Origin: a virus
IMG/VR virus record: IMGVR_UViG_3300045988_117464
Coordinates: 62,738-126,737 of that record
Length of the DNA: 64,000 nucleotides
Reading direction: 5' to 3' (one strand)
In this document: one piece after another, positions 1 through 64,000 of the stretch
Position numbering within the stretch: position 1 is the stretch's first letter
Layout: every line of letters starts with the position of its first letter
Position numbers and translations under genes: made by a program
The notes under the pieces: model-generated
The model's database searches: none
Told to the model about the DNA's origin: nothing
The model's input: the letters and a program-made list of their open reading frames with translations, nothing else

Positions 1-805
1 TTAGTTCCATCAAATTGAATATTATTATCTTCTCCAATTTCTACTAAAAAATTAATGGCTCGTTCATCAAGTTGATATAGACCATTATTTTTTGTAGTTT
101 TACAAATTGCTTTTAAATATCTATTAAATTCATAAATACGGCGAGCCATAATTTGATTTTCATTTTCTTCTGGAAGAAGATCATACTTCATAAGTCCGCC
201 CATATTTTGAAGAGTAATTCTTTTCTTTTTGTCGCAGGTTTCCCAAATATACCAAATCATTAATTCTTTTCTATCCATCATATTATCAAAGGCTCCACCT
301 TTAATAAGAGAAATCATAGCTTGTTTACCTGGCTTAATACGATATAAAAATTCTTTAGGATTTGAATAAGGACGATTAGCAATGATTGTATTAACTAATT
401 CATCACCAACATTTAGCATACCTTTTAATCCAAAAAGAATTTTATTATTTTCAATATCAGGGGCAAATCCAAATTTAGATTTGTTAATATCAGGAAGACC
501 TACTTCAATTCCTGCTTTTTGAATATCACTAATAGCCTTGGCAATTTTTCCATAATCGGTGGCTGCGGTTTTGCGGATTTTGCCACTTTTGTCAGGAAGA
601 TCTTCAAATGTTACTCCATTAGCTAAATCATCGCCTTCAGGAGCATAAATATCGACAATCTCTTCTTCGCTATTATCTTCAAGGGAACCACTATTAACAA
701 TTAAACAAGCGGTATCCCAATAGATAGGATTAAAATGAATTACTAAGTAAATCATTTGAATTGCTACAAATGAATAAGGTAGACTATGATTTAAACTAAA
801 TGCAT
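1..805 (-). CDS. dnaE: DNA polymerase III alpha subunit (DnaE-like), exon 3; C-terminal part runs off the window start
   Basis: Minus-strand translation gives ...GY|AFSLNHSLPYSFVAIQMIYLVIHFNPIYWDTACLIVN...GIEVGLPDINKSKFGF...GLKGMLNVGDELVNTIIANRPY. This matches the DnaE region [27 protein letters not shown]...PPDIN...IGAIKGVG. The frame is open to position 1. Confidence 0.75.
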
Positions 806-1946
806 CAGTTATTCTCATATTTCTATGAGGGCTGGACTATCTTTTACTATAATATATATAAATTATAGCACACCATTTCGAACTACGTATCAATAGTAGT
901 CCTACTTCCGGTCTCACCCGGAATAGTCTCTACAATATTTATCTTAATGGATATTTTAAATTTTCGTCTTTATCAATAGCACCTATATTAACTCTACGCA
1001 CTGTTTCATCAGATGTTCCAGTTAATTTTACAATATCTTTATATAGGAGATTAGTATTTAATAAATATTCTTTTATTAATTGTCTTTTATATTTTTGTGG
1101 AGTTATTTTTCTAATAGGATATTCGCCTTTATAATATCCTTTTTGCAATGTTCCATAATTAAATTTTTTAATAGTTGATTCTCCTAAATTATATCGTTGT
1201 GCTAGTTCTTTAAAAGTTAGTTCAGGTTTTATTAAATCTTCAATTAAAGCATCATAAATATCATTAGAAATTCGATATCTACATAAAGGATATATTTCTT
1301 TTTTATTATAAAAATATTTTCCAGAATTGATACCTGAAATAAAAGTTTTAGATATGGGATAATATTCTTGTATTTTTGAATAAGATGTTTCATCTTTAAT
1401 CATTATTTTTATCTTTTCAACATCTTCTTGTGTTAAAAAAGACTTCCAACTATTATTTCCGCCTTCTAAAACATTATATCCCCATTGAGTTAATAAACTT
1501 TGTTCTTTTTTAATCCAATAACTTTCACGTTCATTTACTAAATCATATGTTTTAGCATCTGTTATAATTTCAATAATTTCAATTTTAAAATTGTCATATC
1601 CATATTTACGAATTGCTTGATGGATTTTATCATTATAATTTACACTATTAGGATTAAAAGAACAACTTTTATGTTCATTAACTCTTCTTTGAAAATTATT
1701 AGTCTAACCTATATATTTTTTATTATTAATTAAATTCGTATATTTATAAATATAAAATATCATTTTATTTCTCCTTTAAAATATATTAAAGGACCATTAA
1801 GACATTTATCACGGGATTGGTATATATTAATGATTCCTTCATTAATACTTAACTTTCCCCGTTAGCAAATTAATAAGTTTAGCCCCAAAAAGGGCTATTA
1901 ATTTACCCCTGTGATAACAGGTTAGGTGTGTAAGGGCAAGCTATTT
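806..1946 (-). mobile_element. Group I intron 2 in dnaE, carrying a GIY-YIG homing endonuclease gene
   Basis: 5' exon ends ...cct caa tta ggg t (ends in U). Intron begins aaatagcttgccc... and contains ggctaacgggga and aatcccgtg motifs near its 5' end. Its 3' region carries gaactacgtatcaatagtag...ggaatagtctctacaat (R/S-like P7 elements). Terminal G at 806 precedes the exon atgcattt. Joining the exons restores the conserved G-Y-A-F-S-L-N-H-S. Confidence 0.7.
939..1763 (-). CDS. GIY-YIG homing endonuclease (intron-encoded), with an in-frame TAG at 1704-1706
   Basis: N-terminus MIFYIYKYTNLINNKKYIG-(TAG)-TNNFQRRVNEHKS is a GIY-YIG motif; the TAG falls where Gln is usual (YIGQT). C-terminal HTH-like repeats (STIKKFNYG, ETVRRVNIG). 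ATG at 1761-1763 is preceded by ggag. Confidence 0.75.
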
Positions 1947-3081
1947 ACCCTAATTGAGGAGCAACTGCAATTTCCCAAAAGTATTCAGCAGATTTTTCAT
2001 TATCAAATTTACTAAATACTTGTTCTTTTAATTGTGGAATTTTAGCCATTTGCTTTTTAGCAACAATCTTACGCGCAGTATTAGCTTCACCAAGAGTAAA
2101 ATGAGCTACATCCATAAGAATTTCCATCATTTGCTCTTGAATAGGACAACATCCATAATATTTATCACAATGCTTATGCATCTTATCAATTAATTCTTGC
2201 GGAAGATGCTGAGCCTTCATTTCATCATCAAATACTTTAATACCCGAATGTTGAATGCGATAATATCTATCTTGCTGTGATTCCTTACCTTTTTCAGACA
2301 TAAGACGCATCATAGCATTGGCCGCCGTCATTTCCATAGGGTCTTGGGGTTTAAGGCGTTTTGCTATTGCCAAACCGACTCCTGTAGAAAATTGGAATAC
2401 ATCTAATACATCACCAGCAGCAAGGTGGTCCCAAATTGCTTGATCAGTTGTATCTATTACTTCTGGATGAATATATTTATTATAAAATTCTCGTAAAGAT
2501 AATTCTGGAACCTACTTATCTTTTAGAAGTAATTGATAACAAGTAATAATTTTATCAGAAGCTTCAGTTACAAGGAAGTCATATTTTGTGTCTCCAGCAG
2601 CTTCCGCTTTATGAAGATCCCAACAAGTAATCATATCTCCGCTAGGAGTTCTCATAAATGATGCGGTATCAAATGGATCGTCACCATATAAAATAACGCC
2701 AGAAGCATGAGAAGAACGTTTATTAACTATTCCTTCAATATATACAATAATATCCAAAAGACCAGGATATTGATTTACTTCTCGAATAAATGCTTGAACG
2801 GGTTTACGATCTTTTTCCTCATTGCCATAAATAACATCATGGATAGGCCATAAAAATCCACGCTCTTGAGGAATTAATGAAGACATATATTGAGCATTAT
2901 CAACATCAATTCCTTCTGGAAATTCTTCACTTCTATATCCACGGCAAGCAGTTAAAATACTTTGTTTAGTGCCTTCAGTTCCAAATGTAGCAACTTGAAC
3001 CAATCCCAATTCTCCGCGTTCTTTTCTAATTGCTTTGAAAATTGCTGGACGTTTACTTGGAGCAAGGTCAATATCAATATC
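1947..3081 (-). CDS. dnaE: DNA polymerase III alpha (DnaE-like), exon 2; in-frame TAG at 2512-2514
   Basis: DIDIDLAPSKRPAIFKAIRKERGELGLVQVATFGT...GDVLDVFQFSTGVGLAIAKRLKPQDP...YYGCCPIQEQMMEIL matches DnaE DFDVDF...VAQIITFGT...GDTLGVFQLES...RLQPD...GIILYQEQVM. The frame continues straight through the TAG between ORFs 2512..3009 and 1945..2373. Confidence 0.8.
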
Positions 3082-4236
3082 CGTTTTTATTTATTGGACT
3101 ATATTTTTCACGATAATTTACTGAGAGCATTTTAATTCAATTATCGCTAGAACATCTTTCAGATGGTGCTTATCTCCACCTTACATAATAGTCTCTACAC
3201 ATTTAATCTTTATTTATCTATTTCCAATAATAACCTTTATATAAAGTATTTTCTTTTATCGCTTTATCTAACTAAGTATGTCCTTTTAATCCTAAGAATT
3301 CTAATACTGCGGTTTTAGCATTAAAAATTTGAATTAAATTATTATTTTCATCATACATAGCAATTTTTTTACCATTGATAGCCTTATTACCTTTTTTACC
3401 ATACATACCATTTTTATTTCCTAATGTCTTACCAATACTATTAATAGACATTTTTTGTTTTGATTCAATAGTATGATGTTTACCATACATTCCATTATTT
3501 TCTCCAGATGTCAATTTACTCATTTTATTTTTAAACTCTGGAGTTTTATAAATTGAATTATCTCTTTCAAATTCAGCCCAATATGATAAAAATGATTTTG
3601 TTTCTTCGCTATGCTATTTGCCATACATTCCATTATTTTTACCACGATTTAATTCACTTAATTTTCTTTTTAAAGCTTTTTTTTCTTCTTCAGTATATCC
3701 AGCGGTAGTATTACCGCCTTCTCCGCCTTCATGAATATTATAAAATAATGGATTAGATACTGCATTATATAAAGCTATAAAATATTTTTCTTTTTCTTTA
3801 TTTTCTTCATTATTATTAGAAATATATAAAATAGACTTAGTAAAGTTTTCTTTTCCGTATTTATTAATAGCTCTTTTTAAAATTTTGCCACTTCCTAAAT
3901 AGGAATCATCTAATTCTCCATAATGTTTTCCAATATATTTCATACCATTTATGTTATTTGTAGTTAAATAAATATAATGTTGTTTCATCATTAAACAACT
4001 CCTTTCATAATTATTTAACTATTAGAATTAGACAATGACTTGACTTTGTCCAAGATTTTTAGCACGGTATTATCAATCTATCCATTTTCAGGACATAGAC
4101 TCTCTTAGTCAGTTGATTCGCTCTTAAAATTAATTAAGACTTATTTCACTGATACCGTTAGCCTGCATCAAGCAGACACCCATTAAGCAATGGTTAATGT
4201 TCTTTTTTTACAACTGCCCAATATCAATATTAGACT
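3082..4236 (-). mobile_element. Group I intron 1 in dnaE, carrying a GIY-YIG/NUMOD homing endonuclease gene
   Basis: Joining ...ERAELP (5' exon ends cct, U) to DIDIDL... restores the conserved DnaE motif ERxxMPDFDxDF. Terminal G at 3082. Structured non-coding flanks (gcaggctaacgg..., aatagtctctacac) resemble the other introns. Confidence 0.6.
3272..3991 (-). CDS. GIY-YIG homing endonuclease with NUMOD3-like repeats; in-frame TAG at 3614-3616
   Basis: IYLTTNNINGMKYIGKHYG...NIHEGGEGG (GIY-YIG); repeated NNGMYGK / NGMYGKHHT NUMOD3-like motifs. ORFs 3614..3991 and 3272..3523 are in one frame across a TAG. Confidence 0.75.
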
Positions 4237-63363: not shown

Positions 63364-63490
63364 TTTTATTCCTCCTAAAATTATTATTACTCTCTACACA
63401 TTTATTATAACAGAAGATATTATAAACTTAGCACGGCGTTCTGTATTCGCCTTCGCCGTTTTAGCCAGCTTCTACTCTAAGAGTTTCCTC

Positions 63491-63766
63491 TTAGGCACTC
63501 TCTACTATTAAATAGTAGTATCCATTTTGACACGGATAGAATACATCAAAGTCCCAGGCGTCTGCCAGTGTTCCGCCACGCCCGCAGATATCAGCTTTAA
63601 TGTCAGCCAACAACTTTCTCTTCAAGTTCCAGCCAGAATTACTGACGCTCAGTCCGTCTATTTTTTCTCTCGCGGGCTTTAGATAATATTTACAAGACCT
63701 CAAATAACATCCTTGAAGTTTGGTAAAGATTTTATTCTTATATTTGCTGATAAGGTCTTTCTTCAT
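63491..63766 (-). CDS. Hypothetical protein
   Basis: ORF with a promoter motif upstream at 63775-63825. Confidence 0.3.
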   Translation of the reverse strand: MKKDLISKYKNKIFTKLQGCYLRSCKYYLKPAREKIDGLSVSNSGWNLKRKLLADIKADICGRGGTLADAWDFDVFYPCQNGYYYLIVESA

Positions 63767-64000
63767 TTTATATAAATATTATATAATATTTTTTATAAAA
63801 TGTCAAATTTTCTTTTGTTTGGTATAAATATACCTTTTTAAAAATTTACAACCACCGCAACCATTTTTATTTTTACAACGATAACAATTATCAGTGTCAA
63901 AAGAAAAATACCAAGGTGGTTGTGGTCGCATTTTTCTTCTTTTCTTTTTCTGTATATATTATATATTAAATTTTTAAAAATGTCAAAAAATTGCGGAAAT

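Follow-up and report, generated by a model that had tools for sequence, protein, structure and literature searches.

TAG read as a sense codon, probably for glutamine, in a common human gut phage with a nearly TAG-free gene block behind promoter-like motifs

Genetic code 15, in which TAG is reassigned to glutamine (Gln), is known from uncultivated gut phages, among them Lak phages, crAss-like phages and the Garnet, Amethyst and Topaz phages (bioRxiv 10.1101/2021.08.26.457843; PMC7886860), and has been validated by proteomics (PMC9523058). In the published model, the host can read early genes and the machinery for the code change, whereas genes for lysis, structure and intron endonucleases stay closed to translation until a suppressor has accumulated (bioRxiv 10.1101/2021.08.26.457843). 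Here we describe the use of TAG in a stretch of viral DNA of 64,000 nucleotides (nt), positions 62,738 to 126,737 of IMG/VR record IMGVR_UViG_3300045988_117464, referred to below as the window. A preliminary description of the window had likened it to the code 15 phages, proposing that TAG is a sense codon throughout, probably for Gln, and that TAA and TGA still end genes. The likeness is borne out by our analysis: TAG occurs in frame, no gene terminates in it, Gln codons are found as its partners, a transfer RNA (tRNA) with anticodon CUA is present in relatives, and a subset of early-type genes keeps to the standard code. We consider it very likely that the window belongs to a code 15 phage in which UAG is decoded as Gln by a phage-encoded tRNA(CUA), UAA and UGA are the sole terminators, and the recoding is organised in time.

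Nearly all genes of the window are carried by the minus strand. When genes were re-called with TAG read through, as the preliminary description had suggested, coverage of this strand by open reading frames (ORFs) of at least 80 residues rose from 70.5% under the standard code to 87.0%, compared with 73.9% when TGA was read through. For ORFs of the same minimum size, the frame stays open past a terminal TAG for a median of 49 codons, versus 5 past TAA and 8 past TGA (Mann-Whitney p=2e-6); on the non-coding strand, open-frame length past TAG does not differ from that past TAA or TGA. A curated set of 89 non-overlapping minus-strand genes, obtained by greedy selection, accounts for 89.7% of the window. 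The stop codon is TAA in 66 of them and TGA in 22, which upholds the proposed role of both codons as terminators, and TAG in none, while 88 in-frame TAGs are spread over 33 of the genes. Neither is there an excess of TAG at the 3' ends, since the last 5% of gene length holds 3.4% of the TAG and 2.9% of the CAA codons. The gain in coverage, the read-through statistics and the lack of TAG among the 89 gene ends together substantiate the view that TAG is a sense codon. No comparable case can be made for reassignment of TGA, as in codes 4 and 25: coverage gains a mere 3 points when TGA is read through, 22 genes have it as their stop codon, and no tRNA(UCA) occurs among the approximately 390 tRNAs of the family.

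Pfam domains flank or span the in-frame TAGs in genes for replication, lysis and other functions, as well as in GIY-YIG/NUMOD genes (see below), and TAGs are indeed present at the sites first reported for dnaE, the helicase gene, the endolysin gene (33884-33886) and the radical SAM gene. All genes in this paragraph are on the minus strand. The middle fragment of dnaE (DNA polymerase III alpha subunit; 1945..3009) has a single TAG at 2512-2514, flanked by the DNA_pol3_alpha and DNA_pol3_finger domains; this codon is CAA in relatives L001 and L004. The gene of a Dda/RecD-like superfamily 1 helicase (5934..7058) encodes an AAA_30 domain N-terminal and a UvrD_C_2 domain C-terminal of its TAG at 6489-6491, which is CAA in L004. 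The RecJ/YorK-like exonuclease gene (9730..11478; DHH, DHHA1 and RecJ_OB domains) contains six TAGs, not four as initially counted, with first bases at 11271, 11001, 10743, 10473, 9852 and 9783, the last site being CAA in 12 relatives and CAG in one. The N-terminal exon of the DnaB helicase gene (15704..16765; DnaB and DnaB_C domains) has TAGs at 16699 and 16591, for which L004 has CAA and GAA. The endolysin gene (33485..34786) has nine TAGs, amounting to 36% of its Gln-type codons, and both of its domains (Phage_lysozyme2 and Amidase_2) span TAGs; at site 33697, 10 relatives have CAA and 4 have CAG, whereas the remaining sites are TAG in 14-18 relatives. Finally, a gene with Radical_SAM and SPASM domains (36943..38235) has TAGs at 38217, 38022 and 37380.

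The preliminary description had itself raised the alternative that such interrupted genes are pseudogenes, to which assembly errors may be added. Nothing more than the bare presence of stop codons would suggest this, and we consider its probability negligible. The interrupting codon is always TAG and never TAA or TGA, and the frame is kept in every gene. TAG is retained at the same sites in up to 24 close relatives that were assembled independently, which rules out sequencing errors and pseudogenes. Moreover, the lineage is extremely common: the assembly collection lists a 103-residue protein of the window in 950 blocks, and the contigs concerned typically measure 177-194 kb.

It is also quite improbable that TAG mostly terminates in this phage, with low-level read-through and mainly truncated products. 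Such an explanation could appeal to the competition of suppressor tRNAs with release factor 1 (RF1) and to the lack of an RF1 antagonist in the DNA scanned (the window and the loci of relatives). The release-factor motif GGQHVN did not occur in this DNA either. It could also appeal to the position of the TAGs, which in the window lie nearer to the 5' ends of genes (mean relative position 0.38, versus 0.51 for CAA/CAG; p=4e-4). The diverged relatives, however, fail to reproduce this skew (0.61 for TAG versus 0.58 for CAA/CAG), and for that reason we do not claim it. The essential single-copy genes dnaE, dnaB and recJ and the helicase gene, as well as the endolysin gene with its nine TAGs, require efficient read-through, and a genuine TAG terminator was found in none of the 89 genes. 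In addition, TAG sites are substituted in the manner of sense codons, and the +4 nucleotide of in-frame TAGs shows no bias relative to that of Gln codons (p=0.37).

The amino acid encoded by TAG was addressed by aligning the curated genes, with TAG translated as X, to all TAA/TGA-delimited frames of 113 related loci and comparing the codons. An aligned relative was available for 72 TAG sites of the window. Close relatives nearly always have TAG as well, and where the codon of a relative differs, the commonest substitute is CAA. Opposite 58 TAG sites in diverged relatives, the site-weighted frequencies of residues are 24.9% for Gln, 13.3% for Lys, 12.8% for Glu, 9.4% for Asn and 8.3% for Arg, and the value for Gln is about 8 times its background frequency of 3.0%. 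In a likelihood comparison based on the substitution tables observed, Gln comes out on top in all subsets, ahead of Lys by 15 log-likelihood units in close relatives alone (11 sites) and by about 22-30 in other subsets, and ahead of all other amino acids by more. In the reverse direction, TAGs of relatives are found opposite window codons for Gln (40), Lys (19) and Arg (14). Where Gln stands opposite TAG, its codon is mostly CAA, two mutational steps away, and CAA and CAG occur there in their background ratio, implying that the signal stems from amino-acid conservation and not from mutational proximity.

The comparison of codons and residues therefore supports Gln, the commonest residue opposite TAG and its maximum-likelihood meaning, as the best-supported reading of this codon, as was suggested in the preliminary description. 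The additional argument made there from GIY-YIG motifs stands in part: in an alignment of the GIY-YIG paralogues the YIG-X column contains Gln or Ser, as argued, but the GYN-X column contains Val, Ile or Met. Among solved structures of distant homologues (PDB), the sole aligned TAG position falls in a variable column (Ala or Ser) and gives no information on the residue. Pyrrolysine decoding received no support, as families for pyrrolysine synthesis are absent among the approximately 49 window proteins scanned. The sole radical SAM enzyme found among them is a SPASM-type maturase whose gene neighbours that of a Cys-rich repeat protein, and the label 'Pyl' given by ARAGORN is the default name of that program for a CUA anticodon. 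The substitution patterns, too, favour Gln over pyrrolysine.

The three tRNAs reported earlier in the window, tRNA-Cys(GCA) (60370..60446), tRNA-Lys(UUU) (60890..60964) and tRNA-Gly(UCC) (62012..62087), all on the minus strand, were recovered; none is a suppressor, all encode CCA, and no ribozyme match lies beside them. The further prediction that a tRNA with anticodon CUA is encoded elsewhere in the genome agrees with its presence in all eight readable close relatives (L118-L125; 93-98% amino-acid identity), where it lies between tRNA-Val and tRNA-Tyr at about 825-918, or at 329-401 in L122, 2352-2441 in L123 and 2212-2286 in L124. This position is equivalent to approximately 18 kb past the end of the window, the tRNA island extending beyond it. 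More distant relatives (L023, L012, L013 and L015) contain other CUA tRNAs, and a survey of 392 tRNAs, from the loci collected to that point, yielded 10 with anticodon CUA and none with UCA or UUA. When IMG/VR was scanned with the core of the L023/L013-type suppressor, four contigs were retrieved, none of them from the species of the window.

The suppressors fall into at least three unrelated sequence types. Six of the eight close relatives have a suppressor of 90 nt with an extended variable region (about 22 nt), no encoded CCA, and an anticodon arm resembling that of the adjacent tRNA-Tyr(GUA); the other two have a class-I suppressor of 73-75 nt at the same locus. Both length forms exhibit an unpaired U1 (1:72) together with G73, found in 10-12 of 15 unique suppressors, and a 1:72 mismatch occurs in 5 of 313 other tRNAs. 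All tRNA-Gln in these genomes have G73 and all tRNA-Tyr have A73, and these features of the acceptor end are the sole discriminators of suppressor identity. A weak first pair and G73 are Gln identity features, and the Escherichia coli supF tRNA-Tyr(CUA) comes to accept Gln through the same acceptor-end changes. From these features we would predict that the suppressor is charged with Gln.

The long variable region of the 90-nt form, class-II-like, and its Tyr-like anticodon arm could also be taken to mean that TAG encodes another amino acid (Tyr, Ser or Leu through a tRNA with a long variable arm), perhaps in a strain-dependent manner determined by the form of the suppressor; for Lys or Glu, the argument would be that they rank second and third opposite TAG. 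However, true Gln sites in the same alignments have their partners in the same order (Gln, Lys, Glu), and the likelihood lead of Gln extends to all these residues. Few TAG sites have Tyr, Ser, Leu or Trp opposite them, although these residues are generally 58-82% conserved in those alignments. The suppressor combines an unpaired U1 with G73, where Tyr and Leu tRNAs have A73, and TAG sites are common to strains with either form. Decoding of TAG as a residue other than Gln thus appears improbable. We give a small chance, though a somewhat better one, to the statement that the 90-nt tRNA is a non-Gln body re-targeted to Gln or that strains decode UAG with different amino acids.

Recoding was at first thought to run throughout the window. 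That description is too broad, as TAG is all but absent from a block of 25 genes on the minus strand (44024..60378). In this block (44.0-60.4 kb) a single TAG is found alongside 128 CAA/CAG codons, whereas the rest of the window has 87 TAG and 430 CAA/CAG codons (Fisher p=3e-8), and the genes of the block favour CAG over CAA (odds ratio 7.2, p=2.5e-19). The same is seen for the orthologues of block genes in diverged relatives (41-75% identity), with 7 TAG versus 2182 Gln codons, compared with 220 versus 1618 elsewhere. Pfam domains in the block include an EcoRI-like methylase, GmrSD/HNH, DUF2828/VWA, an MVP-like protein, cREC_REC, RlaP, two phosphoesterases, an RNA ligase and NADAR, a repertoire that resembles RNA-repair and counter-defence functions.

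The exact motif TTGATT-N16/17-TATAAT, which is sigma-70-like, has 9 matches in the window versus 0.36 expected, all on the coding strand. Copies associated with the block are located at 57914..57942, 56233-56261, 53612-53640, 49393-49421, 46004-46032, 45066-45094 and 43988-44015, and those outside it, at 25079-25107 and 19945-19973, precede the TAG-free ligase and YorF/AAA_24 genes (all minus strand). The promoter-like sites lie 29-44 nt upstream of gene starts, often right after a terminator-like hairpin, and the first gene downstream is TAG-free in 9-10 of 10 cases, versus 63% of all genes. The motif also precedes the tRNA-Val/suppressor pair of L124, at a distance of 22 nt, and the suppressor of L123, at a distance of about 1 kb. 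Tail-fibre-like genes, which in relatives are situated just past the end of the window, are TAG-rich. This arrangement fits an organisation with early genes in the standard code and late genes recoded.

We propose that genes behind the sigma-70-like promoters, having no TAG, would be translated at once by the unmodified host machinery. This early set would comprise the RNA-repair and counter-defence functions, the ligase, YorF and AAA_24. The suppressor tRNA would be expressed from the tRNA island by the same type of promoter, and its 3' end may be trimmed by a candidate ribozyme of the theta type, similar to that of hepatitis delta virus (HDV). As it accumulates, the suppressor would outcompete the RF1 of the host, and genes with TAG would become translatable. 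These later genes would be those for replication (with few TAGs), the intron-borne homing endonucleases and the endolysin (with many), and the tail-fibre-like genes. Theta ribozymes are known to adjoin phage suppressor tRNAs (Kienbeck et al. 2024, PMC10879173), and in L119 a match to the HDV-like family RF02682 at 919-973, outside the window, lies directly 3' of the tRNA at 829-917/918 (26.1 bits, E=0.05).

A number of points speak against a code 15 phage with temporally organised recoding. Conservation at TAG sites is below that of the average Gln site (25% versus 56% Gln opposite), in part because TAG=TAG matches were left out of the tally. The window itself contains no suppressor tRNA, release factor or aminoacyl-tRNA synthetase, the tRNA(CUA) being known from relatives. 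The variable region of the 90-nt form is of the kind found in Tyr, Ser and Leu tRNAs, unlike that of tRNA-Gln, and overall the suppressors are 60-72% identical to tRNAs for Gln, Glu, Trp, Leu, Tyr and Ser alike, which gives no placement with tRNA-Gln. The ribozyme match scores below the Rfam gathering threshold of 44 bits, and the timing is deduced from promoter-like motifs and gene content only. Furthermore, related contigs are binned in metagenome-assembled genomes (MAGs) labelled Mollicutes, Clostridium, Prevotella and Lachnospiraceae, and because these labels are inconsistent the host cannot be inferred. The uncertain host leads to another explanation, namely that the host itself reads TAG as sense and the phage mirrors the code of its host. 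We regard this as highly improbable, since in such a host a conserved TAG-free block behind host-type promoters would have no purpose. The phage lineage also has its own tRNA(CUA), and the TAG-recoded phages of the literature infect hosts with the standard code (bioRxiv 10.1101/2021.08.26.457843).

The highest densities of TAG are found in the homing endonuclease genes, in which it makes up 40-60% of the Gln-type codons, and in the endolysin gene. The initial claim that every homing endonuclease gene is interrupted by TAG needs a slight correction, as 10 of the 11 carry it and an HNH-type ORF in an insertion (7116-7634) does not. On the minus strand, the insertions of dnaE contain a GIY-YIG gene with one TAG at YIG-X (939..1763) and a NUMOD3 gene with three (3203..3991), and the insertion in dnaB contains a GIY-YIG gene with four (14867..15544). 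A DUF2726-like nuclease ORF with two TAGs, one of which (13933) is CAA in 12 relatives, occupies an insertion after dnaB (13439..14143). Further GIY-YIG genes on this strand are found at 21297..22205 (eight TAGs) and, adjoining gyrB, at 28601..29290 (five), and GIY-YIG/NUMOD genes at 31235..31984 (three) and 42224..42964 (five, 62% of the Gln-type codons).

Six precise insertions, each of 0.6-1.2 kb, distinguish the window from the 98%-identical L001, in which dnaE (1329 residues) and dnaB (510 residues) are both intact; they are located at 805-1946 and 3081-4238 (dnaE), 14695-15732 (dnaB), 21121-22365, 13443-14211 and 7125-7692. Most of them contain a homing endonuclease ORF. The frame of the upstream exon ends soon after each junction, which suggests that the insertions are self-splicing introns rather than inteins. 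A search of the window against Rfam, even at E<=0.5, revealed no group I intron or ribozyme.

Several other minus-strand ORFs of the window contain TAG. Between 19981 and 23165 these are the ORFs at 19981-20649 (two TAGs, both CAA in relatives) and 22350-23165 (four TAGs). Around the radical SAM gene they are found at 36403-36924 (two), 38567-39271 (two) and 39286-39792 (two), and in the tRNA island at 60977..61552 (three) and 62758..63498 (two). The ORF at 38567-39271, close to the radical SAM/SPASM gene, encodes a protein of 234 residues whose N-terminal two thirds form a Cys-rich repeat of CxxxC type, and its homologue in L023 has a weak match to tSAM_targ_Cxxx_rpt. The two look like a putative maturase and substrate pair. 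A second Phage_lysozyme2 gene, located in the replication module (8837-9676), has no TAG, while the lysozyme and amidase gene at 33485-34786 has nine.

Within the TAG-free block, an 832-residue protein (53696-56194) matches MVP_shoulder (1.4e-21) and Vault_3 (7e-8), and the neighbouring gene (56311-57876) encodes a DUF2828/DUF7788/VWA protein. Both genes are without TAG and have a strong preference for CAG. Proteins of LR756500, LR756501 and LR756503, huge phages of 462-735 kb, share 39-41% identity with the MVP-like protein. A separate SPFH/flotillin gene is present at 39967-41352.

The part of the tRNA island within the window (60400-64000) is hypervariable among near-identical genomes (compared with L006-L008 and L022-L027). 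The sets of tRNAs in relatives differ, with Lys present or absent, Leu or Met added, and Gln together with a suppressor in L023. The inserted ORFs differ as well, L006 having a LAGLIDADG gene where the window has an ORF of 246 residues. A number of short contigs are broken near position 63.8 kb of the window, some 30 nt upstream of a gene encoding 91 residues, and exact protein matches to this ORF come from short contigs of 1-2 kb only. Between tRNA-Lys and the 103-residue ORF lies a near-perfect AT-rich palindrome of 47 nt (60801-60847; 20-bp stem) that scores as a bidirectional terminator-like hairpin.

The window has a G+C content of 32% and a negative GC skew along its whole length, and it derives from an AT-rich phage of approximately 190 kb that is very common in the human gut. 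Its replication module is SPbeta-like, with a YorK-type RecJ, YorF and DnaE. Full-length homologues of the RecJ-like protein have 581-582 residues and are encoded on contigs of about 190-200 kb; one copy, 98% identical and located on a 188.6 kb contig, has DNA that is untranslatable under table 11. IMG/VR contains many relatives with at least 93% amino-acid identity and, beyond these, a broader family with genomes of 140-205 kb and identities of 41-75%. Two assemblies, L023 (380,007 bp) and L025 (383,447 bp), are about twice the length of the approximately 190 kb phage genome and are possibly concatemer artefacts. Whole phage contigs of the family (L133-L144) are also found in MAG bins of the genome collection under conflicting labels. 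A megablast search with 24 kb of the window against GenBank phages gave no match. Identity with a Lak-type megaphage was considered and rejected, because the huge phages LR7565xx (462-735 kb) have the MVP-like protein alone, at about 40% identity, in common with the window.

Annotation with table 11 fragments about one third of the genes of this lineage, including dnaE, recJ, dnaB and the endolysin gene, and table 15 is therefore required; automated gene callers had already put Gln at the TAG positions in its proteins. The phenomenon as such is already documented, the lineage itself was not found described by name, and knowledge of code 15 is not extended in kind. The window nevertheless illustrates the published code-switch model clearly, with a conserved TAG-free block of genes behind a host-type promoter motif and a suppressor with the same type of promoter. 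The most TAG-dense genes are those that would be harmful if expressed early, i.e. the endolysin gene and the intron-borne homing endonuclease genes.

Among known suppressors, E. coli supE is a tRNA-Gln with anticodon CUA, and acceptor-end mutants of supF tRNA-Tyr(CUA) are mischarged with Gln. The suppressors described here share with these mutants the CUA anticodon, a weak or unpaired 1:72 position and G73, but they occur naturally in phages and comprise at least three unrelated types, one of which has a long variable region, and their charging with Gln is predicted. As with theta ribozymes, the HDV-like match in close relatives begins right after the 3' end of a suppressor that lacks an encoded CCA; unlike them, it is a weak match (26 bits, E=0.05) outside the window, and a candidate from its sequence only. 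The gut caudoviricete phAss-1, of the proposed Phassvirus group, has TAG in about 40% of its annotated ORFs, tRNA-Sup(CTA) genes and no dedicated aminoacyl-tRNA synthetase (PMC10607447). The RecJ-like proteins of phAss-1 and the window are distantly homologous, with 35% identity. The phage phAss-1 differs in its genome size of 136 kb, in being distantly related and in being described as rare (PMC10607447), whereas the lineage of the window is very common. With the code 15 gut phages in general the window has in common TAG in a fraction of its genes, TAA and TGA as stops, a tRNA(CUA), early-type genes in the standard code, and heavily recoded genes for lysis and intron-borne homing endonucleases. 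In contrast to the named code 15 clades, its lineage has genomes of approximately 177-197 kb with an SPbeta-like replication module and does not obviously belong to any of them. It further departs from the code 15 gut phages in that its replication genes are lightly recoded and its TAG-free set of genes is tied to a repeated sigma-70-like motif.

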